From contig CP046178.1 of the NCBI GenBank assembly GCA_014075255.1, positions 705,616 through 769,615 on the forward strand: a stretch of DNA of 64,000 nt, written 5' to 3'. Source of the DNA: Gammaproteobacteria bacterium. Lineage in GTDB: Bacteria > Pseudomonadota > Gammaproteobacteria > UBA4575. The notes beneath the pieces were generated by a model, which had not been told where the DNA came from, did no database searches, and worked only from the letters and a program-made list of their open reading frames with translations. The first letter of the stretch is position 1; every line of letters begins with the position of its first letter. A program made the position numbers and the translations under genes. Shown here one piece after another: positions 351 through 16,651 of this stretch.

Positions 351-1721
351 ATGACGAATGAACTAATCTCGCCTCTTTCCGCACTTAGACGTCTTATCGA
401 ATCCAAACAGATGGAAAAATCTGATGTCGATTTTATTAACGATAAAGACTATGTCTGGTCTCCTCATAATAAAATTATCAACGTAACCCCAGGTCCTGCT
501 TTTGGGTCTGAATTGGTGACTCAATTTTCATCCAACCAAACAAGAGGCATGCGTGGCCCAGGTGTGGCGAAGTATTTTGCATCGGTTCGTGAGGACTACG
601 CAAAAATGGTGGATATGCAAGAAGGCGGTAGAGCGTTGTTTTATACCGGTTCAGGAACCTCTGCAACTGAAGCTGCTGCAGGCTCTTGCCAGACACCGGA
701 TGAAGTAGGTTCGGACAAGAAAGTGATCATCACATTAGAGATTGGCGCTTTCAGTAATGCCATGGGTAATTGCGTTGAAAACTTAGGTAGAGGTGTGGTT
801 CGCATTAATGGTGAACTGGGTGAAGACCTACCTTTTGCTAAGTGCAGAGAAGTGTTGGAAAAAGACACGAATCATGACATTAAGATGGTGATGGCACCGC
901 ACAATGAAACCGGTGCTGGTGTGACAACAGACCCTAAGAAGTTACGTGACTTATTAGATGAACTAAAACACCCTGCGCTGGTTTTTATTGACGGTATTTC
1001 TTCTATCGGCAGCATGCCGTGCTCGATGACTAAAATGGGCATCGACATGCTAGTGGGCTGTAGCCAAAAAGGTATGATGGGTACCCCTAGTATCGGAATG
1101 ATTACCCTCAGCCCTAAAGCAGTACAAAGAATTCAAGAGTCTGAAAAACAGATGGCAGATGCGGGAGTTAAGAAAGGCCAACATTACCTTAACCTTGGCA
1201 AAATGATTGAAGCCATGGATAGCCTGGGTTTACATATTGAAACCCCGAGTAATTACTCACAATTCGCGGTGGCATTGGATTCGATTGCGATCGAAGGCAT
1301 TGATCGCGTTTGCGATCGTCACAGAGAGTGTTCTGAAGTGTACCGTGCTGCAGTTCAGGCTGCAGGATTTGATTTAGTAACCAAAGATAACAGTTTGGCA
1401 TCGAATGCAGTAACCGCTATTCGAGCACCAGAAGGTCATGGCGAGAAAGACATTATGAACGTCCTCATGATTATGTATTACAAACACGCGGTAGAAGCGG
1501 CAGCCATTCCTGGTTATCCAGATATGGGTTGGCGACTTTGCGCAACAGGCGGAATTCAACCTCAACATGCGTTGATGGCTTCAATCGCTTTCTTGAAAGC
1601 AGCTGAAGAAGCAGGATTACCAATTGATGCTGACAAAGGTATCGCTGCGGGTTCTAAGAAGTATGCAGAAGTGGTTCAGTATCATCGCCCTCTTCCTGGA
1701 ATTGATGTATACGGAAGATAA
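351..1721 (+). CDS. Class V (AGXT-like) PLP-dependent aminotransferase
   Basis: 456-aa ORF. The central 'GCSQKGMMGTPSIG' resembles the PLP-lysine region of serine-pyruvate/alanine-glyoxylate-type aminotransferases. Confidence 0.6.
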   Translation: MTNELISPLSALRRLIESKQMEKSDVDFINDKDYVWSPHNKIINVTPGPAFGSELVTQFSSNQTRGMRGPGVAKYFASVREDYAKMVDMQEGGRALFYTGSGTSATEAAAGSCQTPDEVGSDKKVIITLEIGAFSNAMGNCVENLGRGVVRINGELGEDLPFAKCREVLEKDTNHDIKMVMAPHNETGAGVTTDPKKLRDLLDELKHPALVFIDGISSIGSMPCSMTKMGIDMLVGCSQKGMMGTPSIGMITLSPKAVQRIQESEKQMADAGVKKGQHYLNLGKMIEAMDSLGLHIETPSNYSQFAVALDSIAIEGIDRVCDRHRECSEVYRAAVQAAGFDLVTKDNSLASNAVTAIRAPEGHGEKDIMNVLMIMYYKHAVEAAAIPGYPDMGWRLCATGGIQPQHALMASIAFLKAAEEAGLPIDADKGIAAGSKKYAEVVQYHRPLPGIDVYGR

Positions 1722-1922
1722 GTCTGTTAAAAAATATTGAAGAAACAGAAGAAAGGACTCTAATACATTAACTAAAGTGCATTAGCTAAAGAAAGTTCTT
1801 CCTTCAAATACACTTCCCAAAACATCCAGTAGATCATCCAGTAAAATCTAAATTCTTTAGATTTTACTGGATATATAAACCGTTATTTATCCCACTTCAT
1901 TCAGTCTGGCTATTTGTTATCA

Positions 1923-1939
1923 TTGTTATATTATAACAA
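1923..1939. promoter_or_regulatory. Zur box (TTGTTATA-T-TATAACAA), 7 bp upstream of the start codon at 1946
   Basis: Perfect 7-1-7 inverted repeat TGTTATA/TATAACA. It matches the gammaproteobacterial Zur consensus GAAATGTTATAwTATAACATTTC. Confidence 0.7.
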
Positions 1940-1945
1940 TAGAAT

Positions 1946-2269
1946 ATGAAGCCATTTAAGCCACAAAAATTAGTCATAGCTTATTTTCTGCTTGCGTTAG
2001 TGAGCTCTCAATTCTTGCTGGCTCAACATAGTGCTGATCATCTAGATTCAACTAGCCACTCTCAACAAGATAATGAAAAAAATGAAAGTGATATTTGCCA
2101 GTTTTGCGTTACCGCAAAAAATCTAGAGCAAGATTTTATAATCCATAGCGAATTACTTTTCTCGACCCCATCATTTAAGAAAGTTTATTTATGCTCTCTA
2201 AAGTATTCTAGCCGTACAACCTGTAGCAAACCTTTTCAATCTCAGGCCCCTCCTGCACAGTTCTCTTAA
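1946..2269 (+). CDS. Small secreted protein with conserved CQFC (CxxC) motif; Zur-regulated leader gene of a zinc-uptake operon (possibly DUF2946-like)
   Basis: 107-aa ORF with an N-terminal signal peptide, His/Asp/Glu-rich segment and 'ICQFCV'. It has a paralog at 5805..6128 and a Zur box immediately upstream. Confidence 0.6.
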   Translation: MKPFKPQKLVIAYFLLALVSSQFLLAQHSADHLDSTSHSQQDNEKNESDICQFCVTAKNLEQDFIIHSELLFSTPSFKKVYLCSLKYSSRTTCSKPFQSQAPPAQFS

Positions 2270-2423
2270 AACTACGAATTAATAAGCCTTAATGTAAGGA
2301 CAGCAATACTCGCATTATTGTGCCGAATAACAGGCTTTGTGGTCGATGCTATAAACACCAGTAATCACCACTTCTCTGGACTTTATCAAATCACTATTAC
2401 AGTGAATTTGAAGGATCAAGATT

Positions 2424-3056
2424 ATGCAAATAACACCAAAAGCACTACTAACTATTTTTTTATTTTTACCCATCGTCACAATTTATGCTTCTGAAGATCA
2501 ACATTCTCACGATGAAGAAAGTATGTTTGAAGAGCATAGCGCTCATGAACATGGTCATGCTTCTTCACAAATTACGTTTATCAACCACACACTCAATCTA
2601 GCATTATCACTACCCTCGATTGATATATTTGGCTTTGAACATGAACCTCACAATGAAAAAGAACATGAAATCATCACTCAATCACAAGCTATCCTTAAGA
2701 ATGCGGATAACATAATTTCCATACATCCTAATAACGAATGTGAACTTAAATCTATTAGCTTGGAAAGCAGCATAATTGATTCTGTAAATGAAAATGATAA
2801 AGATCACAATGATCATGAGTCAGATGAACACCATGATGCCGAATCACATGACGAAGAAGAACACAATGATGAAGAACATAGCGACGTATCGCTCCACTAT
2901 GTTTACAGCTGCTCACAAGACAACCTAGAATCAATAGAATACAAAATATTTGATCACTTCCCCACAATTGAAGAAATTGAAGTACAGTTTGTTTCAAATG
3001 AGACTCAGAATCTATTTACTGCAACACCAAAATCTCGCGCTCTATCATTTAAATAA
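2424..3056 (+). CDS. Histidine-rich periplasmic zinc-binding protein, ZrgA-like (DUF2796-like)
   Basis: Signal peptide. Multiple H/E/D clusters (HSHDEE, HEHGH, HNDHESDEHHDAESHDEEEHNDEEH). The position matches the Vibrio zrgABCDE arrangement. Confidence 0.55.
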   Translation: MQITPKALLTIFLFLPIVTIYASEDQHSHDEESMFEEHSAHEHGHASSQITFINHTLNLALSLPSIDIFGFEHEPHNEKEHEIITQSQAILKNADNIISIHPNNECELKSISLESSIIDSVNENDKDHNDHESDEHHDAESHDEEEHNDEEHSDVSLHYVYSCSQDNLESIEYKIFDHFPTIEEIEVQFVSNETQNLFTATPKSRALSFK

Positions 3057-3091
3057 CAAAATCTAATCCATTACCTTCAATAAATTACTTT

Positions 3092-3796
3092 ATGTCACAA
3101 GATTGTATTCAGTTATCAAACGTTGAGTTTTGTTGGGGCAATAACCAACCATCATTATTCAATATTGAGTCACTGACGCTTAGAAAAGCAGAAAAGTTAT
3201 TTATTCACGGCCCGAGTGGCTGTGGAAAAACAACTTTATTGAATCTGATCTCTGGAGTCCTCATGCCTACTCGAGGAGATATTTTAGTTTTAGGGAATAA
3301 CATGTTTTCCCAAAAACAAAAGTTAAGAGATCAGTATCGAGCAGATCATATGGGAATTATATTTCAACAGTTTAATTTAATTCCCTATCTCAATGTATTA
3401 GAAAATATCACTCTTCCCTGCCTATTTTCATGGCGCAGACGAGAAATGCTTTCCATACAAAAACGTAGCTCTACTGATGAGGCATTAAGATTATTAGCGG
3501 CGCTTGGTTTAAAAGACAAAGATATTATCTTTAAAAATGTAACAGAGTTAAGTGCTGGCCAACAACAACGTGTAGCGGCAGCACGTGCATTAATCGGTTC
3601 TCCTGAAATTATTATTGCAGACGAACCCACATCTGCTTTGGATCAGGACGCTAAACAGGGCTTTTTAGAACTGCTGTTTGATGAAGCGAAGAAAAGTAAC
3701 AGCGCATTGTTATTTGTTAGCCATGATCTAACTTTATCAAATTTATTTGATCGCTCGGTATCATTAAATGAATTTCGCTCTGTGGAAAACGCATGA
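3092..3796 (+). CDS. ABC transporter ATP-binding protein (LolD/FtsE-like; ZrgB-like)
   Basis: Walker A 'GPSGCGKTT', ABC signature 'LSAGQQQRVAAARAL', Walker B 'IIIADEPTSALD'. There is an ATGA overlap with the next gene. Confidence 0.85.
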   Translation: MSQDCIQLSNVEFCWGNNQPSLFNIESLTLRKAEKLFIHGPSGCGKTTLLNLISGVLMPTRGDILVLGNNMFSQKQKLRDQYRADHMGIIFQQFNLIPYLNVLENITLPCLFSWRRREMLSIQKRSSTDEALRLLAALGLKDKDIIFKNVTELSAGQQQRVAAARALIGSPEIIIADEPTSALDQDAKQGFLELLFDEAKKSNSALLFVSHDLTLSNLFDRSVSLNEFRSVENA

Positions 3797-5061
3797 ATAT
3801 CAAGATTTTCCTACTAGCTTTAAAAAGTCTCCGCTTTCGTAAACTTTCAATAGGTTTAACTATTTTCTCACTAGCCATCAGCGTTGTGTTACTTCTAGGG
3901 GTAGATATCATACGCGTACAAGCTAAGGAGAAGTTTGCTAACACTATTAGCGGTACAGACTTGATTGTTGGCTCACGTAGTGGTTCTACACAACTATTGC
4001 TATACAGCATCTTTCATTTAGGTAATGCAACAAACAATGTTTCCTGGGAAAGCTACAACAAGATCATAAGTCATCCACGAGTAAATTGGAGCATCCCTAT
4101 TTCCTTGGGTGATTCACACAAAGGCTACCGTGTAGTTGGAACTACAACAGATATATTTCAATATTATCGATATAGCAAACGTCATAAATTAACGTTCTCA
4201 AGCGGCCAAGAGTTTTCAGGGATTTTTGGTGCAGTTCTTGGTGCAGAAGTTGCCAAAAAACTTGACTACCAACTTGATGAGAAAATTATTCTTGCGCATG
4301 GCATGGGTAATGTAAGTTTTGCCGAACATAAAAACCTACCTTTTACAGTAACAGGAATATTAAAACCTACCGGCACTCCCATTGACCGATCTGTATTGAT
4401 AACGTTAAAAGGATTAGAAGCCGTACATATAGGTTGGGAACAAGGCGTACCTAGTAAAAACGCTATTCAAACAAATGATCTAGAGAAGGATGACGATAGA
4501 CTTCAATCTAAATCCATAACAGCATTTCTACTAGGCCTTAAAAATAAACAAGATATCTTCTCCATACAACGTGGAATAAACAATTATAAATCAGAGCCGT
4601 TACTTGCGATTCTTCCAGGTATTGCACTCATGGAGCTATGGAAAGTGGTTGGAGCAGTAGAAAAAGTAATGCTGATCATTGCAGCACTGGTTGTTGTAAC
4701 GGGTTTGTTAGGGATGTTAGCCATTATATTAACCAACTTAAACGAGCGTCGACGCGAAATTGCAGTGCTGCGTTCTGTTGGAGCTTCACCTAAAACAATA
4801 TTTACACTAATGGTCATTGAATCAGAGATATTGGTGATACTAGGAATATTTTTAGGTTTAATAATTTTGTACTTTTTATTAGCGCTTATTAATCCTATGT
4901 TATTTAATACATATGGCTTAAATATTGAACTTCAATCACCCACCAAGCTCCAATGGATCATGCTACTCATCATCTTATTAGGTGGATTGGTTGCAGCAAT
5001 ATTTCCGGCGATCAGCGCTTATAGGAAAACTTTACAAGACGGGTTAACCATACGAACATGA
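3793..5061 (+). CDS. ABC transporter permease, FtsX/MacB-like (ZrgC-like)
   Basis: One N-terminal TM helix, a large periplasmic domain and three C-terminal TM helices with an FtsX-type layout. It is translationally coupled to flanking genes. Confidence 0.8.
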   Translation: MNIKIFLLALKSLRFRKLSIGLTIFSLAISVVLLLGVDIIRVQAKEKFANTISGTDLIVGSRSGSTQLLLYSIFHLGNATNNVSWESYNKIISHPRVNWSIPISLGDSHKGYRVVGTTTDIFQYYRYSKRHKLTFSSGQEFSGIFGAVLGAEVAKKLDYQLDEKIILAHGMGNVSFAEHKNLPFTVTGILKPTGTPIDRSVLITLKGLEAVHIGWEQGVPSKNAIQTNDLEKDDDRLQSKSITAFLLGLKNKQDIFSIQRGINNYKSEPLLAILPGIALMELWKVVGAVEKVMLIIAALVVVTGLLGMLAIILTNLNERRREIAVLRSVGASPKTIFTLMVIESEILVILGIFLGLIILYFLLALINPMLFNTYGLNIELQSPTKLQWIMLLIILLGGLVAAIFPAISAYRKTLQDGLTIRT

Positions 5062-5651
5062 ATTCATTCAAACATAAACAATACATTTCTTTTGCACTGA
5101 ACATATTGGTGTTCATTTCCATAGCATGCCCAACATTACAGGCAGAAGAAGCTAAAGAGTTAGATTGGGGTGACCTAGCACCAGAGGGTTATTTTGAAAG
5201 CTTGGAGCAAAACCAAAAGTCCACATTAGGTGGATCATTTGATGCTTTTGGTGATGCACTCGGTATTGAAACTTTTGAAGATGATTCTGAAGAAGCGCAG
5301 CAAGCCTATGATGAGTTACAAGTCACGTTACGCTCTGCACCTATTGTTCCTGAGTTAAATGGACAATATGTAAAACTCGCCGGATTCATTGTACCCTTAG
5401 AATATGATTTCGAAAATGGCACCTTTAGTGAATTCCTGTTAGCGCCTTACTTTGGTGCCTGCATACATGTTCCACCACCCCCATCCAATCAAATAGTATA
5501 TGTAAAGTCACCTAAGCCACTAGGTCAGAAATGGTTGGATAATGCCGCCTGGGTGGAAGGTACAATAACAACAGAAAGCGTTAATAGTGACTATGGTTCT
5601 GCTTCATATTCGATGAAAGATGTTCAATTAGATATCTATGATGCTGACTAA
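5058..5651 (+). CDS. DUF3299 domain-containing secreted protein (ZrgD-like)
   Basis: Signal peptide. The 'GACIHVPPPPSNQIV' motif is characteristic of DUF3299. It is the last gene of the Zur-box operon. Confidence 0.6.
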   Translation: MNSFKHKQYISFALNILVFISIACPTLQAEEAKELDWGDLAPEGYFESLEQNQKSTLGGSFDAFGDALGIETFEDDSEEAQQAYDELQVTLRSAPIVPELNGQYVKLAGFIVPLEYDFENGTFSEFLLAPYFGACIHVPPPPSNQIVYVKSPKPLGQKWLDNAAWVEGTITTESVNSDYGSASYSMKDVQLDIYDAD

Positions 5652-5781
5652 GCAGTGTGTATAGCACCGCAATAGAAAACTCGCTTGAAACCCCTATATA
5701 TTTAATACCCATGCGCAGGCTAGGCGCCTAGAAGCTAGGTGCGGTAGTGCGCTAGCTTAGCGAGTATACATCTCAAAATAG

Positions 5782-5798
5782 ATGTTATATTATAACAT
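5782..5798. promoter_or_regulatory. Zur box (ATGTTATA-T-TATAACAT), 7 bp upstream of the start codon at 5805
   Basis: Perfect 17-bp palindrome matching the Zur consensus. It lies at the same position relative to the gene as the first box. Confidence 0.7.
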
Positions 5799-5804
5799 AT
5801 CAAT

Positions 5805-6128
5805 ATGAAGCTATTTAAGCCACAGAAGCTAGTTATAGCTTATTTCCTACTTGCATTAATTAGCAGTCAATTCCTGCTGGCTCAGCATAGTGCAACTCAT
5901 CTTGATTCAGATAATCATTCCCAACACGATGAAGACGATAGTGAAAGTGATATTTGTCAGTTTTGTGTTACTGCAAAAAATCTAGAGCAAGAATTTCTAG
6001 TTCAGTCGCATGTATCTCTTTCAGCATCTACATCAAAACAAAATTCTTTATGTGTATTTGAATACACTCTTCACTCTACTTGTAACAAACCTTTTCACTC
6101 ACAAGCACCTCCTACTCTTTTCTCTTAA
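5805..6128 (+). CDS. Small secreted CxxC protein, paralog of 1946..2269; Zur-regulated leader gene
   Basis: 107-aa ORF with near-identical signal peptide, 'SDICQFCVTAKNLEQ' and C-terminal 'KPF.SQAPP..FS' compared with the first paralog. The nucleotide sequences are about 80% identical. Confidence 0.6.
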   Translation: MKLFKPQKLVIAYFLLALISSQFLLAQHSATHLDSDNHSQHDEDDSESDICQFCVTAKNLEQEFLVQSHVSLSASTSKQNSLCVFEYTLHSTCNKPFHSQAPPTLFS

Positions 6129-6161
6129 AAAACGTTTTAATTAACTTTATGAGGAAAGATT

Positions 6162-7517
6162 ATGTCCAGATTATATTACTGGGCGACTGTCTGTGTGGCA
6201 GTTGCCTTATTTACCTGTAGTCAAAATGTATTTTCAGCTGAAAATACAGATTTGATAAGCTTAAAAAATGAAATAGCTGAAATGCGAAAACTCTATGAGC
6301 AAAAAATTCAGCTCTTAGAAAAGAAAGTAACGTCATTACAGTCACAACAAGAAGAACTTAAAAAGCAAGAACCCGCAGCTCAAGTAGCGCGAGCGCCTGC
6401 AACGAGCCAACGTAGTATTGGCTCAAATGATTTCAATCCATCGATTAGCGCAATTCTGCAAGGAAAATATAATAGTTTTTCTAAACGAAACTCTGAATTT
6501 TCAGGCTTTGCAGTGGGCGAAGAAGGTGAACGATCATCAGAAGGATTCACGCTTGATGAAACCGAAATTAACCTTGCTGCAAGCATTGATGACAAGTTCC
6601 GAGGTAGCTCAACCATTGCACTAGTGCAAGAAGATGGTACACAAGTAGAGCTTGAAGAAGCGTATATCGAAACCATTGGCCTACCCTTTGGTATAAGCGC
6701 TAAAGCGGGAAGGTTTTTTGCATCTCTTGGTTACTTAAATGAACATCACAGCCATGCCGATGATTTTACGGATCGTCCATTACCGTATCGGGTATTTCTA
6801 AATAAGTCATATAACGATGATGGCGTTCAAGCCACATGGATTGCGCCAACAGATTTATACACTGAACTAGGGTTTGGTGTATTTCGCGGCGGTGACTTCC
6901 CTGGTGGTGGTGAAGGTGACTCGAATGTGGGTGCATGGACTGTATTTGCTCGCATTGGTGGCGATATGGGTGACAACTCTGCTTGGCGAATGGGGTTATC
7001 CACTTTACAAGTCGATGACTTAGAACGATCTAGCAATGAAGATGAACTAGAATTTGCCGGCGACAATAAAATGTACATTGTTGATGGTCGTTACATTTGG
7101 GCACCCACCGGAAACAATCGCGAGAAGGAATTAATCCTACAAGCTGAGTATATGCAACGCGATGAAGATGGTATCTATGACGACTTAGCAGCCGGCTCTG
7201 GCCCTGTTTCGTATGACGAAGATCAATCGGGTTGGTATGCGCAAGGCATTTATAAGTTTCACCCACAATGGCGTGTAGGCGCACGCTACAGTCACCTTAA
7301 CCCTGGCGATGTACCTACCGCATTAGTGGGAACCGTGTTGGATGATCAAAATCATGATCCGGAAAGTCTATCCTTAATGGCAGATTGGACGAATAGCGAA
7401 TTTGGTCGTTTGCGTTTGCAATACAACATGGAAGAGCTTGCAGATGATAATCGTGACCATCAGATCACGCTTCAATACATCATGAGTATGGGTGCACATG
7501 CCGCCCACTCTTTTTGA
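6162..7517 (+). CDS. Putative outer-membrane beta-barrel (porin-like) protein with N-terminal coiled coil; Zur-regulated
   Basis: Signal peptide, then a coiled-coil segment (LKNEIAEMRKLYEQKIQLLEKKVTSLQSQQEELKK). The body has alternating amphipathic strands and a terminal Phe, as is typical of OM proteins. The family is not assigned. Confidence 0.45.
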   Translation: MSRLYYWATVCVAVALFTCSQNVFSAENTDLISLKNEIAEMRKLYEQKIQLLEKKVTSLQSQQEELKKQEPAAQVARAPATSQRSIGSNDFNPSISAILQGKYNSFSKRNSEFSGFAVGEEGERSSEGFTLDETEINLAASIDDKFRGSSTIALVQEDGTQVELEEAYIETIGLPFGISAKAGRFFASLGYLNEHHSHADDFTDRPLPYRVFLNKSYNDDGVQATWIAPTDLYTELGFGVFRGGDFPGGGEGDSNVGAWTVFARIGGDMGDNSAWRMGLSTLQVDDLERSSNEDELEFAGDNKMYIVDGRYIWAPTGNNREKELILQAEYMQRDEDGIYDDLAAGSGPVSYDEDQSGWYAQGIYKFHPQWRVGARYSHLNPGDVPTALVGTVLDDQNHDPESLSLMADWTNSEFGRLRLQYNMEELADDNRDHQITLQYIMSMGAHAAHSF

Positions 7518-7525
7518 GGTGAAGT

Positions 7526-8422
7526 ATGAGTAAATATGTATTTTTTCTAATACTATCGTTACTTCCAACGGCTTCTATTGCCAAATTAGACATTTTTGCA
7601 TGCGCTCCTGAATGGGGCGCACTTGCAAAAGAAATTGGTGGTGAAGAAGTTAACGTATTTACGGCATCCAAAGCCTCGCAAGATATTCACCATCTTCGCG
7701 CAAAACCTAGTTTTTTAGCCAAAATGCGTAAAACAGAACTTGTGTTTTGCACCGGTGCATCACTGGAGGCAGGTTGGTTACCGGTTCTCTTACAAAAAGC
7801 AGGAGGCGCTAAAGTGCAAGCCGGTCAAGTGGGTCATCTCCTTGCAAGTGAATATGTAGAAAGACTTGAACAAGCCGAATCAGTAGATCGTTCAATGGGG
7901 GATGTACATGGTGAAGGTAACCCTCACATTCACTTAAACCCACATAACTTAATCTTAATAGCAGATGAACTAGCGGAACGGTTATCGATACTTTCTCCTG
8001 ATAAAGAAAAGTATTTTAATAATAGACTAGAAAACTTTAAGATAAACTGGCAGCAATATATAGAGGACTGGAAACAAAAAGCTCAATCTTTAACGAATAA
8101 ATATGTTGTCGTGTATCACCAAAACTGGATTTATTTACTGAAGTGGTTAAATATAAATCGAGTGACAACGCTTGAACCGGTACCCGGCATGCCCCCACGC
8201 ATTTCTCATTTAGAAAATGTACTTGCATCGGTTAAAAACCAAGACATCACGGCTATATTGTTAACGCCCTACCAACAAAACAAAGCGGCGGCTTGGCTAT
8301 CAGAACATGCAAACATACCTGTGGTTACACTTCCCTATACCGTGGGTGGGAGTAAAAATGTTACAGACTTGAAATCTTTATTTGATGAAACCCTGCAACT
8401 CTTGCTTGAAGCGAGTTCATGA
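7526..8422 (+). CDS. Metal (zinc) ABC transporter substrate-binding protein, ZnuA/TroA-like
   Basis: Signal peptide and a cluster-9 SBP-like sequence. The ATGA overlap with the downstream ZnuB-like permease supports the assignment. Confidence 0.7.
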   Translation: MSKYVFFLILSLLPTASIAKLDIFACAPEWGALAKEIGGEEVNVFTASKASQDIHHLRAKPSFLAKMRKTELVFCTGASLEAGWLPVLLQKAGGAKVQAGQVGHLLASEYVERLEQAESVDRSMGDVHGEGNPHIHLNPHNLILIADELAERLSILSPDKEKYFNNRLENFKINWQQYIEDWKQKAQSLTNKYVVVYHQNWIYLLKWLNINRVTTLEPVPGMPPRISHLENVLASVKNQDITAILLTPYQQNKAAAWLSEHANIPVVTLPYTVGGSKNVTDLKSLFDETLQLLLEASS

Positions 8423-9189
8423 TGATATCTGCTGACTTATTCGTTTTATTACTGCCTGCCTTTGCAGCGGGATGTTTAGTGGCAACCACGCACGTGCCTC
8501 TGGGCCTCGAAGTTTTAAAACGTGGGATTATTTTTATCGATCTAGCCATTGCACAAGTAGCAGCAATGGGTGTTGTGATAGGCCATGTAACTTTCCATAA
8601 TTCAGGCCAGCTTCAATCACTTCTGCTGGCTTTAGTCTTTGCCTTATCAGGCGGTGGATTGTTCGCTTGGCTAGAAGCAAAACAGTTTAAACATTTAGAA
8701 GCCATGATTGGTGCCGTTTTTGTGGTGAGCGCCTCCATTACCATTCTTCTCCTTGCCAAAGACCCTCATGGTATTGAAGCCATGGAAAAACTACTAGCAG
8801 GACAAGTGCTTTGGGTGAAATGGTGGCCAGATTTAATGATTACGTTAATCATTTATGCAATCATTTTACTAATCTGGTTTAAACGAGATACGAACAATTC
8901 ATCTTTATTTTATTTCATATTTCCAATAGTAGTGACTTTTTCAGTTCAGATCGCGGGAATTTATCTAGTGTTTGCTAGCTTGATCTTGCCTGCCATCGCC
9001 ACTTGCCAAATTAACGGGAAAACGAAGTTACTAAGTGGCTACGCGGTAGCATTGATGAGTGTAATTTTAGGTTTAATGAGCGCAGTATTCTTTGACCTAC
9101 CCACAGGACCTGTGATTGTATGCACTTACTTTGCAGTCTCTATGTTGCTGCTTTTAAGTACTTATAAAATTATTATTAAAGTTAAATAG
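8419..9189 (+). CDS. Metal ABC transporter permease, ZnuB-like (ABC-3 family)
   Basis: 256 aa with multiple TM helices and a composition similar to ZnuB/MntB. No cognate ATPase gene is adjacent. Confidence 0.75.
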   Translation: MMISADLFVLLLPAFAAGCLVATTHVPLGLEVLKRGIIFIDLAIAQVAAMGVVIGHVTFHNSGQLQSLLLALVFALSGGGLFAWLEAKQFKHLEAMIGAVFVVSASITILLLAKDPHGIEAMEKLLAGQVLWVKWWPDLMITLIIYAIILLIWFKRDTNNSSLFYFIFPIVVTFSVQIAGIYLVFASLILPAIATCQINGKTKLLSGYAVALMSVILGLMSAVFFDLPTGPVIVCTYFAVSMLLLLSTYKIIIKVK

Positions 9190-9320
9190 AAAACTCGTAT
9201 ATAGAAACAAGGTTAACTAACTAGAAATAACATTATTAGAAAACCTGGTTACAGAGTTAAGTTTCGTACTACCATTTTCTTAATGTCAGGTTCTGGCAAT
9301 ATGAGCTTGTAGCACGATTA

Positions 9321-9737
9321 CTAAGGTGGACACTGTTTAAATACCTGTGCTTTATATAGTTTGTCTTTTGCAAAGTGCAAATTTGTAATTTTTTCATTTG
9401 CTTGGGCGCTACTATCTGTAGCGAGGTAGGCAGGCAAGAAAAATAGACTGCCAAAAAATCCAATAGTTTGATTAGAATCTCGCTTATCACCTATTTCTTG
9501 GCTTTGTATAACGTGCTCGCTATTAAGTTCCACTAATTCTTGCTTTATTTCTTCACAAGTTAAGTTTGCAGTCTCAGGGTCAAAATCATCTACACTTAGC
9601 CTATGTTTTGAGTGCACAGAGCCATAATCTGGAGGTAGATCTGGTGCACTTGTGGCGCATCCGTATAAAGCTAGTAAAAATACGATGATTAGTAAGAACT
9701 TATTCAATGTACTCAACCGCTCTACCTTTACCTTCAA
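9321..9737 (-). CDS. Hypothetical lipoprotein
   Basis: Lipobox 'LALYGC' after a hydrophobic signal. It overlaps the upstream gene by 38 nt, so the true start may differ. Confidence 0.4.
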   Translation of the reverse strand: MKVKVERLSTLNKFLLIIVFLLALYGCATSAPDLPPDYGSVHSKHRLSVDDFDPETANLTCEEIKQELVELNSEHVIQSQEIGDKRDSNQTIGFFGSLFFLPAYLATDSSAQANEKITNLHFAKDKLYKAQVFKQCPP

Positions 9738-10270: not shown

Positions 10271-10870
10271 TTAATTTTTATTTGTTTCATTTCTCCACTT
10301 CCATGGTGGAATAGGATTTTCTGTTTTCCATAAACCTACCTTTTTTGATTTCGCCCAATATTCTTTGCTGTTTAAATCTTTCTGCCTTTCTTTTGGCAAA
10401 TGTTTATAAAATCTTCGCATCACCCAAGCGTGTCCGCAGACGACCATTTTTGCATTCACATTAATCCATTCATTATCTACATTATTTTTGACATAAACAG
10501 TTGCCACCATACGATCATATTTATCGTAACCATGCGGTTCTAATCGAATTTTCTGGCCACCAATAAATCGAATCAAGCCGTATTTAGCCGTATCTCCCCA
10601 AGGTTGGCCATCTTCTGGGCAATCGATTGAATCTAAACGCACTCGAAAATTACTCCAAGCATCTCCAACTATAATCGTATCTCCATCAATCACATGATGA
10701 ACTTTTTTAATTACAACATTTTTTCTATCTAAACTTGATCCTCTCTTATTGGAAACTCCTTTATCAACATAATTTTCTGATTCTGGCTTTGTGCCTTCAT
10801 CTGACTTAAGTCTAAATACTATGGCTAGAGCAATTAATATAACTACAATTAAAAGTACTCCTACTTCCAT
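10271..10870 (-). CDS. Thermonuclease (SNase/staphylococcal nuclease-like) family protein, membrane-anchored
   Basis: N-terminal TM helix and 'VIDGDTIIV...VRLDSIDCPE', the classic SNase active-site region. It lies 28 bp downstream of the MerR-family gene on the same strand. Confidence 0.8.
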   Translation of the reverse strand: MEVGVLLIVVILIALAIVFRLKSDEGTKPESENYVDKGVSNKRGSSLDRKNVVIKKVHHVIDGDTIIVGDAWSNFRVRLDSIDCPEDGQPWGDTAKYGLIRFIGGQKIRLEPHGYDKYDRMVATVYVKNNVDNEWINVNAKMVVCGHAWVMRRFYKHLPKERQKDLNSKEYWAKSKKVGLWKTENPIPPWKWRNETNKN

Positions 10871-15029: not shown

Positions 15030-16651
15030 CCTTCCTTTTCAAAGAAATACTTGAGTACATTTTGTTCTGATAATTGTTCTTTTGGTAATTCCGTCTGCAG
15101 CGCACCACGATGCATTACGTATGCACGATGCGCTAGATTTAAAATTTCTGGTAAATCAGACGATATGAGTAATACACCCGCACCTTTTTCACATAGCTCT
15201 GCAATAAATTTGTAAATTAACATTCGTGCACCCACATCTACACCCACCGTGGGCTCATCGAATATAAAAAGTTTGACGTCTCGAACTAACGCCTTACCTA
15301 TTAATGCTTTTTGTTGATTGCCACCTGAAAAATGTTCGACATCGCGTTCAATATTGGGTGGATTTATATCTAATTTTTTAGATACATCTTCGATTTTTTT
15401 CTTTTCTTCTGATCTTCGTAGAAACCAATTATAGGAAAAGGCTTTTAACCCAAGAGAAGCTAAAGATACATTTTCTCTAACATTTTGAACCATCACTAAC
15501 CCTTCTTCTCGTCTATCCGATGGCACGTAATACATGCCGCGGTCTAGCATCACGCGAGGCTTTAAGGTGTTTATATGACGCTTACTGCAGTAAACTGTGT
15601 CGCCACAAAATTTTATTTTTCCACTTGTAATATTTTCTATCCCAAATACAGCACGCCCTACTTGTGATTTTCCTGACCCCACAAGTCCCGCAATTCCAAC
15701 CACTTCCCCGCTTTTAATTTGCATAGATACATCTTGTAAAACATTATTTTGAAGTGTTAAATTTTCAATTGTTAATAATGCTTTATCCGGTTTTGCTTGA
15801 ATGTCTGGAAAGACTTGATCAATTATCCGGCCGGTCATCAATTCAACTAATTTTTGCTCACTGGCTTCTTTAACGGGTATGGTTGATACAAATTTACCGT
15901 CGCGAAGAACCGTAATACGATCACCAATTCTCTGAATTTCATTAATTCTATGCGTGATGTAAATGATTCCAATTCCTTCTTGCTTAAGTTCTTCAATTTT
16001 TGAAAAAAGCTGATCTGTTTCACGCTCAGTGAGTGAAGCTGTAGGCTCATCTAGAATTACAATTGAAGGTTTGGTGCGAAATGCTTTTGCTATTTCTACC
16101 ATCTGCTGTTCTGCACGAGATAAATACATCACTAAACTATCAGGATCGAGAGGAAATCCTAATCGGCCTAGTGTTTCATTAGCTTTTTCGCGTAATTGGT
16201 TTTTATTTAGGAATGGTCCTCTGGTCATCTCTGAACCCAGAAATAAATTTTCTCCTACCGTTAATTGCGGAATAATAGAAAATTCTTGAAAAACCGCACT
16301 GATACCGAGATTTCGCGCTTGATGCACAGATTGCAGTTCTACCTCCTGCCCATTTAGTAAGATCTTGCCTTTTGTTGGAAGATGCACACCCGCAATGGCT
16401 TGAACAAGTGTTGACTTGCCTGCGCCATTCTCACCAAATAACACGTGCACTTCACCACTTCTTACATCAAGGCTTACATTATCTAGCGCTAATGTGCCTG
16501 GAAATTGTTTAGAGATATTCTCTACACGTAGCAGTACTGAATTTTCAACTGCTTTCATTACTTTATCCTTGTCAAAAGGAGTCGACTTCAAACCATTAAT
16601 CGACTCCCTTACTGCAGTTTCTTCAACACGAATTTTAAATTGAGCAGACAT
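15017..16651 (-). CDS. Sugar ABC transporter ATP-binding protein with two ABC domains (RbsA/MglA-like)
   Basis: Two Walker A motifs (GENGAGKST; GLVGSGKS), two signature/Walker B sets, and 544 aa. Confidence 0.9.
   Translation of the reverse strand: MSAQFKIRVEETAVRESINGLKSTPFDKDKVMKAVENSVLLRVENISKQFPGTLALDNVSLDVRSGEVHVLFGENGAGKSTLVQAIAGVHLPTKGKILLNGQEVELQSVHQARNLGISAVFQEFSIIPQLTVGENLFLGSEMTRGPFLNKNQLREKANETLGRLGFPLDPDSLVMYLSRAEQQMVEIAKAFRTKPSIVILDEPTASLTERETDQLFSKIEELKQEGIGIIYITHRINEIQRIGDRITVLRDGKFVSTIPVKEASEQKLVELMTGRIIDQVFPDIQAKPDKALLTIENLTLQNNVLQDVSMQIKSGEVVGIAGLVGSGKSQVGRAVFGIENITSGKIKFCGDTVYCSKRHINTLKPRVMLDRGMYYVPSDRREEGLVMVQNVRENVSLASLGLKAFSYNWFLRRSEEKKKIEDVSKKLDINPPNIERDVEHFSGGNQQKALIGKALVRDVKLFIFDEPTVGVDVGARMLIYKFIAELCEKGAGVLLISSDLPEILNLAHRAYVMHRGALQTELPKEQLSEQNVLKYFFEKEGCSQ

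Follow-up and report, generated by a model that had tools for sequence, protein, structure and literature searches.

The subject of this analysis is a 64,000-nt stretch of DNA (hereafter, the window) from a gammaproteobacterium of the lineage UBA4575 (assembly GCA_014075255.1, contig CP046178.1, positions 705,616 to 769,615), in which two related open reading frames (ORFs), each encoding a protein of 107 amino acids (aa), stand at the head of two different metal-uptake operons. We consider it fairly probable that each ORF is a cis-acting, metal-sensing arrest-peptide leader of the kind represented by CruR of Bordetella pertussis and CutF of Rhodobacter capsulatus, superimposed on transcriptional repression by Zur. 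This reading is built on family membership, the geometry of the conserved motifs, synteny, an RNA hairpin at the end of one of the leaders and purifying selection; translational arrest at a QAPP motif, zinc as the ligand, the polarity of the switch and a role for Rho would be its further parts. The two copies of the cassette, referred to below as A and B, consist of the following elements (coordinates are those of the window).

1924..1938, no strand assigned: Zur-type palindromic operator of copy A, TGTTATATTATAACA, 7 nt before the ATG, resembling the Caulobacter Zur boxes of PMC4176598

1946..2269, + strand: leader ORF A, 107 aa, with a hydrophobic N-terminus, H28/H32, CQFC codons at 2096-2107 and QAPP codons at 2243-2254, followed by four codons and the stop

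5783..5797, no strand assigned: Zur-type palindromic operator of copy B, TGTTATATTATAACA, the identical 15-mer, 7 nt before the ATG

5805..6128, + strand: leader ORF B, 107 aa, with CQFC codons at 5955-5966, QAPP codons at 6102-6113, the tail TLFS and the stop at 6126-6128

The two leader proteins are 66% identical without gaps (BLASTP E-value 2e-51) and lie within a DNA repeat (1924-2271 versus 5783-6130) of ∼ 81% identity over two ungapped blocks, whose left edge coincides exactly with the start of the 15-bp palindrome; there is no third copy of the cassette in the window. A preliminary description of the region had reported a small protein duplicated together with its operator in front of two different transporter operons, and the coordinates, the sequence identity and the repeat that begins at the palindrome bear this out, as do the Pfam matches of the downstream genes (ZrgA/ABC/FtsX/DUF3299 in one operon and ZnuA-family/ABC-3 in the other). 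The N-terminal hydrophobic segment, the CxxC motif and the His-rich stretch that it listed are present in both copies, and the common core 'SDICQFCVTAKNLEQ' and C-terminal 'KPFxSQAPPxxFS' are real, the divergent centre lying at residues 61-92. The copies are separated by a synonymous divergence (dS) of ∼ 1.0 with a dN/dS ratio of 0.23, and every motif residue has been kept in copy A. Copy A is therefore not decaying but under purifying selection, despite having lost the hairpin and acquired a spacer of 154 nt, and we rejected the possibility that it is a recent or decaying relic.

Direct scans of both leaders against Pfam and NCBIfam assigned them to no family. A search of 5.8 billion proteins yielded no more than ten close relatives, each of them from an uncultured gammaproteobacterium, and matched the window itself to a metagenome-assembled genome (locus tags GKR92_03585 and GKR92_03610). 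Residues invariant in this clade are H28, H32, C51, C54, K58-N59-L60, C93 and K95-P96-F97-x-S99-Q100-A101-x-P103, and P102 is nearly so, the lone exception (P0005) being a suspected homopolymer frameshift. When a profile of the ten close homologues was compared with 1.84 billion representative sequences, 18 matches were obtained, 17 of them small proteins (81-122 aa), the full-length ones sharing the layout of the leaders; the odd one out was a 2284-aa protein matched over a short stretch only. The distant matches end in RAPP rather than QAPP, and RAPP-bearing proteins were reached at E-values of 3e-6 to 9e-4. Three distant relatives pass the DUF2946 gathering score of 23.7 bits (P0017, 26.7; P0022, 28.9; P0023, 26.3), and alignment of the QAPP clade to the RAPP set with hhalign gave a probability of 99.2% (E-value 2e-19, residues 6-106). 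By these profile comparisons, the window leaders are a divergent subclade of DUF2946, to which they are linked transitively via their relatives. A relationship with DUF2946, proposed for checking in the preliminary description, was the right one, although it runs through intermediates and a direct match to the family model is absent.

Analysis of the conserved positions revealed a nearly fixed distance from one main motif to the other. The CxxC motif (CQFC at residues 51-54 in both copies) is invariant in 23 of 23 aligned proteins, and the QAPP motif (residues 100-103 in both copies) follows it after 45 residues and ends four residues before the stop. Of 24 family proteins, 22 have a gap of 45 residues from CxxC to the xAPP motif and two have one of 44. 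The tail between xAPP and the stop measures 2-5 residues in 22 of these proteins, but 12 in P0013 and 9 in P0015. Variation in length is confined to the His/Asp-rich stretch that separates the hydrophobic N-terminus from CxxC. In place of the RAPP motif proper, which in DUF2946 stands about three residues from the C-terminus, the close clade invariantly has Gln for Arg, and P0015 has His. H28 and H32 are invariant or nearly so across the 23 aligned proteins, while the K-P-F-x-S sequence upstream of QAPP is invariant in the window clade and missing from the RAPP relatives. The N-terminus has a basic n-region, hydrophobic residues 9-26 and a possible cleavage site LLA|QH (AxA|QH in relatives). 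In a structure prediction, proposed earlier as a way of finding a metal site in the mature peptide, AlphaFold2 placed a helix at residues 6-35 and a low-confidence second helix, and it gave no confident fold (predicted local distance difference score, pLDDT, 65; predicted template modelling score, pTM, 0.33). Two aberrant C-termini, the APL ending of P0005 (locus L001) and the 12-residue tail of P0013 (locus L007), were dismissed as real variants because they depend on one-base differences in C/T homopolymers, and the nucleotide sequence around them (L001 ∼ 10298-10330; L007 ∼ 6304-6354), including the hairpin, is otherwise conserved; both are probably assembly errors in the homopolymers.

The closest parallel to this arrangement is CruR (Bp2923), a DUF2946 protein and copper-responsive upstream ORF (uORF) of the bfrG TonB-receptor operon of B. 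pertussis (Roy et al., mBio 2022, PMC9426467). In CruR, CXXC occupies residues 90-93 and RAPP residues 139-142 with 45 residues between them, and this spacing is conserved within 1-2 residues and functionally important (PMC9426467); the ribosome stalls on it when its two Pro codons have entered the P and A sites (PMC12992588). Like CruR, the window leaders are the small first gene of a metal-uptake operon and have an N-terminal export signal (putative in the window), the CXXC-45-xAPP layout near the stop and a C-rich 3' end, and CruR too has been described as poorly structured, as AlphaFold2 suggests for the leaders. The cruR-bfrG spacer of 162 bp, at which Rho-dependent termination takes place and for which a Rho-utilization (rut) region has been mapped in cruR (PMC9426467), is comparable to the 154 nt that follow copy A. 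In contrast, copy B has a 33-nt spacer with a hairpin that masks the ribosome-binding site, unlike the long spacer and Rho-dependent termination of CruR. Further differences are the Gln of QAPP in place of an Arg that is functionally required in CruR, the invariant HxxxH of the window leaders (the hallmarks given for CruR are only CXXC and RAPP; PMC9426467), and the zinc context (Zur-type box, ZnuA-like protein, ZrgA) as opposed to copper.

CutF, assigned to DUF2946 by its authors (Ozturk et al., bioRxiv), is a nascent exported copper sensor upstream of cutO (bioRxiv 10.1101/2022.11.11.516240; bioRxiv 10.1101/2025.02.05.636593). It shares with the window leaders a signal peptide, a Cys motif, a C-terminal proline motif and, if these function as we propose, action in cis. 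A stem-loop shields the next Shine-Dalgarno (SD) sequence in that system, the anti-SD lying in the last four cutF codons; this has been shown experimentally, and operon B is predicted to have the same layout. CutF differs in having CxxxC and PPP, and copper enhances its stalling, which switches on a detoxifying oxidase; since the genes downstream of the window leaders are importers, the opposite polarity would be expected here. Both CruR and CutF act as cis-acting uORFs via ribosome stalling, and their mature products either escape detection or are believed to be short-lived (PMC9426467; bioRxiv 10.1101/2022.11.11.516240). The RAPP/RAGP arrest peptides SecM, ApdA, ApdP and ApcA (Fujiwara et al., EMBO J 2025, PMC12992588) are likewise small exported proteins encoded upstream of the gene that they regulate; close to the C-terminus they have an arrest-type motif ending in Ala-Pro-Pro, and they stall with the last two codons in the P and A sites; unlike the window clade, with its invariant Gln and additional K-P-F-x-S, they depend on an irreplaceable Arg.

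The CutF-like hairpin of copy B joins the end of the leader to the SD of the following gene, which encodes a predicted outer-membrane protein of 451 aa.

6116..6129, + strand: 5' arm of the hairpin (anti-SD), formed by the last codons of leader B and its stop and beginning 3 nt after the Pro-Pro codons; duplex of -12.6 kcal/mol, shuffle p = 0.002

6146..6159, + strand: 3' arm of the hairpin, containing the SD GAGGAAAGA (6151-6159) of the 451-aa gene

The minimum free energy fold pairs 6116-6124 with 6151-6159 and 6126-6129 with 6146-6149. Junctions of this kind were scored by pairing the 18 nt that follow Pro-Pro with the 24 nt that precede the next ATG and comparing the result with shuffles of the 5' segment. 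A duplex of -9.7 to -21.8 kcal/mol was found in all 14 junctions leading into porin-like or TonB-receptor genes (12 independent contigs, as L001/L004 share one contig, L002/L005 another, and L017/L018 have identical junction sequences), with a shuffle p of no more than 0.022 in each; 13 of these junctions, from 11 independent contigs, are additional to copy B. Among segment pairs of the same geometry in the window, only 2% reach the duplex value of copy B. In 12 of the 12 junctions measured, the first nucleotide of the 5' arm lies 1-3 nt past the Pro-Pro codons. The arms differ between clades yet stay complementary (CUCUUUUCUC/GAGGAAAGA, UCCUUUCUUUCC/GGAAGAAAGGA, CCUUAUCUA/UAGAUAAGG), and the pyrimidine-rich codons of the leader tails (LFS, FLS, FLI) are conserved because they form this complementary arm. 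A search of positions 1700-9400 against Rfam at a permissive threshold gave two sub-threshold chance matches only. For copy A the hairpin mechanism was rejected, its spacer folding no better than shuffled sequences (z-scores of -0.63 and +0.9). The last ∼ 60 nt of both leaders have an excess of C over G (C21/G6 and C19/G3), which puts them in the top 0.7% of the segments scanned; the resemblance to the rut region of cruR is suggestive, with Pro, Ser, Thr and Leu coding contributing to the bias.

The exact 15-mer TGTTATATTATAACA occurs only twice in 64 kb, each time 7 nt upstream of a leader ATG (the ∼ 7 occurrences expected by chance according to the search tool include matches with up to three mismatches, whereas there are two perfect ones), and it resembles published Zur boxes such as GATGTTATATCATAACAAT (PMC4176598). 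An identical box is located at -22 in five loci, including L001-L003; it is at -25 in L008 and farther upstream in L007 and L009. Between the operator and the leader ATG there is no SD in either copy, and transcripts starting at the leader may be leaderless or almost leaderless, with which the strict -22 spacing in the five loci would agree. Possible -10 hexamers (TATTAT, TATAAC) can be seen within the operator box. A scan for promoters and terminators performed no better than on shuffled sequences and did not fix the transcription start. From the palindrome we infer that Zur controls the transcription of both leaders. The zinc context proposed in the preliminary description is supported by the Zur-type box, by the presence of ZrgA and by the three His residues that could be aligned in the ZnuA-like protein (see below).

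The leader ORF is the first gene in both operons of the window and in all related loci with enough flanking sequence, and it always precedes metal-uptake genes. Orthologues of copy B in three contigs (L001/L004, L002/L005 and L003) head an operon of the 451-aa gene, the ZnuA-like gene and the ABC-3 gene. The same operon follows the RAPP-type relatives from other lineages (L011, L012/L013, L014, L017-L022), where the homologue of the 451-aa protein is 47-59% identical, and because of this low identity the four-gene unit is judged to be old. Members of the clade ending in QAPP or HAPP in L007, L008 and L009 head genes for TonB-dependent receptors; in L009 the leader stands back to back with a zrgA-ABC-DUF3299 operon that has 57-87% identity to the one in the window, while a leader placed directly before zrgA, as in copy A, was found in the window genome only. 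The leader thus precedes three unrelated kinds of uptake gene, encoding a porin, a TonB receptor and ZrgA. By eye, the signal peptides of the TonB receptors, MSKLYPWAIACMAI and MFRLFFWEAACVAV (L007 6367-6450; L008 642-730), are like that of the 451-aa protein, MSRLYYWATVCVAV (window 6162-6245). Given this likeness, the mobile unit seems to comprise not only the operator, the leader and the hairpin but also the signal peptide that the following gene encodes.

Operon A, behind copy A, contains the following features.

2270..2423, + strand: spacer between leader A and zrgA, 154 nt; the anti-SD hairpin is lost and a degenerate remnant of its 3' arm lies at ∼ 2295-2305

2424..3056, + strand: zrgA, encoding a His-rich predicted periplasmic zinc-binding protein of the ZrgA/PA4063 family (PF10986 = DUF2796; PF10986 E-value 9e-41)

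3092..3796, + strand: ABC ATPase of a Zrg-type transporter (PF00005, E-value 1e-31)

3793..5061, + strand: FtsX/MacB-type permease of the Zrg-type transporter (PF02687, PF12704)

5058..5651, + strand: DUF3299 periplasmic protein, ZrgE/PA4066-like (PF11736, E-value 6e-40), the last gene of operon A

ZrgA, the ABC ATPase, the FtsX-type permease and the DUF3299 protein make up a full Zrg set, in the order of the Vibrio parahaemolyticus zrgD-A-C-B-E genes. There, zrgD (encoding a DUF2607 protein of ∼ 100 aa with one transmembrane (TM) helix), zrgA, zrgC, zrgB and zrgE are transcribed in this order (PMC9817125; PMC9820375), ZrgE being a DUF3299 protein (PMC9817125). ZrgA has been shown to bind zinc and to be needed for zinc uptake in Vibrio (PMC9817125; PMC9820375). 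The window ZrgA scores 102.6 bits against NF047873 (E-value 2.3e-29), below the 185-bit cutoff of that model, and has N-terminal and central His/Asp/Glu-rich stretches (for example, DHNDHESDEHHDAESHDEEEHNDEEH) that are longer than described for PA4063; a tblastn search with it against plasmids gave no match. Operon A thus resembles the zrg operon in gene order, with a small TM protein followed by ZrgA, the ABC ATPase, the permease and DUF3299. ZrgD is Zur-regulated and its knockout is without a phenotype (PMC9817125; PMC9820375), but it belongs to a different Pfam family, and it was compared with the leaders by gene order and description only; one leader relative, P0024, has a weak match to DUF2607 (E-value 0.035). 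Between the end of operon A and the copy B operator, positions 5700-5765 are G+C-rich in A+T-rich surroundings and contain short palindromes such as CTAGGCGCCTAG; this stretch may be a terminator or an element similar to repetitive extragenic palindromes.

Operon B, behind copy B, encodes three proteins.

6162..7517, + strand: 451-aa predicted outer-membrane protein that combines a signal peptide and N-terminal coiled coil with a porin-like beta-barrel (AlphaFold2 pTM 0.62)

7526..8422, + strand: ZnuA-family substrate-binding protein (PF01297, E-value 1e-37; best solved relative 1pq4)

8419..9189, + strand: ABC-3 (ZnuB-like) permease (PF00950, E-value 4e-15)

The Foldseek matches of the 451-aa protein include OmpT, OprO/OprP, chitoporin and DcaP, whereas a sequence search of the PDB with it gave nothing meaningful. 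It has an invariant cluster of H196, H198, D200, D201 and F202 (consensus HHSHADDF), and at least 2477 homologues were found at E-values below 1e-10, none of them with a Pfam family; we regard it as a candidate zinc-specific outer-membrane channel. Among solved structures, the ZnuA-like protein is closest to Synechocystis ZnuA, and three of its His residues align with conserved His residues of the latter, which we take to be its zinc ligands. In place of a full ZnuABC set, operon B has the porin-like gene and lacks an ATPase: no ZnuC ATPase gene was found in operon B or in the related loci with a complete operon (L001-L003, L012, L017-L019, L021), and the sole other Walker-A ABC ATPase of the window is encoded near 16435 on the minus strand.

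According to the mechanism that we propose, Zur at the palindrome would set the level of transcription, after which the leader would be translated, its hydrophobic N-terminus emerging first. The nascent chain would then carry His28/His32 and CxxC, with the His/Asp-rich linker between them, at a fixed distance from the arrest-type sequence KPFxSQAPP. A ribosome that pauses while the two Pro codons occupy its P and A sites should cover the next 12-15 nt, which for leader B, with the P site at 6108-6110, would mean coverage to roughly 6123, judging from general ribosome footprint sizes. In operon B the nucleotides so covered would be those of the anti-SD arm; with the ribosome on this arm the hairpin could not form, the SD of the porin-like gene would therefore be free, and the pause would turn on the porin/ZnuA/ZnuB operon. 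A metal bound by the emerging peptide, zinc at a site of the Cys2His2 type being the likeliest, would alter how long the pause lasts. In an uptake operon the polarity is expected to be that of CruR: with the pause relieved by the metal, the hairpin would form again and shut the operon off. Copy A is an old duplicate, situated before zrgABC-DUF3299; if it is regulatory, it would most likely act by CruR-like Rho-dependent termination, which would vary with the extent to which ribosomes occupy the C-rich 3' end of the leader. Zinc is the most likely ligand because of the Zur-type box, the His positions of the ZnuA-like protein, the ZrgA operon and the combination of H28/H32 with CxxC. The most specific form of this proposal, namely that the leaders are natural zinc-sensing arrest peptides with a site made of H28, H32, C51 and C54 at a fixed 45-residue distance from a non-canonical QAPP, in which zinc changes the dwell time of the ribosome and thereby gates the hairpin (copy B) or the access of Rho (copy A), and that operator, leader, hairpin and the signal peptide encoded next behave as a portable cassette moved before a porin/ZnuA operon, TonB-receptor genes and a Zrg operon, is put forward as a tentative possibility that falls short of an even chance.

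Several observations weigh against an arrest-peptide leader. Neither leader matches the DUF2946 (PF11162) hidden Markov model, even at E-values of up to 1, and their export is putative, having been judged from sequence and the AlphaFold2 helix alone. The arms of the hairpin are pyrimidine-rich and purine-rich, respectively, so that composition aids their pairing, and the shuffles control for the 5' arm only. The tail of copy A does not pair with the zrgA SD (-4.0 kcal/mol, shuffle p = 0.76), and neither a terminator nor a known RNA element was found in its spacer. No Zur-type box was found ahead of those RAPP-type relatives that stand first in the porin/ZnuA/ABC-3 operon, and, with respect to the choice of metal, copper is what the DUF2946 members characterised so far sense, CxxC being a classic set of Cu(I) ligands. 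The main difficulty is that the Arg of RAP(P/G) is irreplaceable in ApcA, ApdA, ApdP and SecM, and the R139A variant of CruR lost its arrest in vitro (PMC12992588); with Gln in place of this required Arg, QAPP may pause the ribosome weakly or not at all. The K-P-F-x-S sequence may compensate for the missing Arg, or there may be a weaker Pro-Pro pause, sensitive to elongation factor P, as reported for CutF.

If the absence of this Arg is taken at face value, together with the absence of a hairpin from copy A, the leaders might neither sense a metal nor arrest translation: the hairpin would serve translational coupling, allowing translation of the porin-like gene only as ribosomes pass through the leader, and copy A would merely provide the zrg operon with a Zur-regulated promoter. 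In the same vein, the cassette could act mainly as a promoter and initiation module, because the leaders have no SD and the operator abuts the ATG. We judge this quite improbable, as the leaders of other clades, down to ∼ 20-25% identity with the window proteins, have kept C51, C54, H28, H32, KPFxSQAPP and the 45-residue gap, and coupling leaves unexplained why copy A retains all the motifs after a dS of ∼ 1. The metal, on the other hand, could be a different one. Given that the DUF2946 members studied so far respond to copper via CXXC or CxxxC, and that no Zur-type box is seen with the RAPP-type relatives at the head of the porin/ZnuA/ABC-3 operon, the ORFs could be regulatory uORFs sensing copper or another thiophilic metal, in which case the zinc importers would be tied to copper status or the ZnuA-like system would carry another metal. 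This has a small but real chance of being correct; against it stand the identical Zur-type operator at a fixed distance in five loci, the zinc-type three-His pattern of a binding protein closest to Synechocystis ZnuA, the position of copy A before the operon of ZrgA, whose family has been shown to bind zinc and to take part in its uptake, and the invariant HxxxH and CxxC, which are compatible with a Cys2His2 site.

The preliminary description had favoured a role for the proteins themselves in feeding zinc to the importers. Its metal-uptake setting has stood, but the periplasmic chaperone or zincophore that it envisaged has fared less well. In that scenario, the mature exported peptide, periplasmic or membrane-anchored, would be an accessory serving both Zrg- and Znu-type importers, which would account for the hydrophobic N-terminus, the His/Asp-rich stretch, CxxC, the invariant H28/H32 and purifying selection across the whole ORF, and would have a counterpart in Vibrio ZrgD, the single-TM protein at the head of the zrg operon (PMC9817125; PMC9820375). 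However, knockouts of zrgD in V. cholerae have no growth phenotype under zinc chelation (PMC9817125; PMC9820375), no confident fold was predicted for the peptide, and the finding of one type of leader before a porin, a TonB receptor and ZrgA is more in keeping with a regulatory cassette than with a specific partner protein. Such an accessory also leaves unexplained the fixed 45-residue spacer, the invariant KPFxSQAPP by the stop and the anti-SD hairpin. Because CruR and CutF act in cis (their products being undetectable or thought to be degraded) and the window leaders keep CxxC, the 45-residue spacer, xAPP and, in copy B, the hairpin, we consider a chaperone improbable as the main function, although the mature leader peptide may have a second role beside regulation. 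The cis-acting, metal-sensing leader therefore remains our preferred reading of both ORFs.

Nascent-leader sensing of transition metals has so far been shown for copper only (CruR, CutF), and no riboswitch is known for copper or zinc according to the authors of the CruR study (PMC9426467). The survey that accompanied CutF covered copper and nickel/cobalt contexts, its main text containing no zinc, ZnuA or Zur (Ozturk et al., bioRxiv), and the main texts of the three key papers on this class of leaders mention neither zinc nor ZnuA nor Zur. New with respect to this literature are the zinc-uptake and Zur-box context, the conserved leader-porin-ZnuA-ZnuB operon and the QAPP variant, as well as the geometry of CruR appearing together with a hairpin of the CutF type and the occurrence of the cassette before three kinds of uptake gene and twice in one genome. 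The analysis explains the small 'hypothetical' genes that head many metal-uptake operons and draws attention to a large unannotated family of porin-like proteins that travels with an ATPase-less ZnuA/ZnuB pair. If the leaders do sense zinc, they offer a directly testable system with clear targets for mutation, namely the Cys pair, the His pair, QAPP, the anti-SD arm and the start codon. They would then provide a natural case of Gln in place of the supposedly irreplaceable Arg of RAPP, which bears on what lets xAPP arrest translation, and would add a fast post-transcriptional zinc switch to control by Zur, extending the mechanism to zinc as the first zinc-responsive members of the CruR/CutF class.

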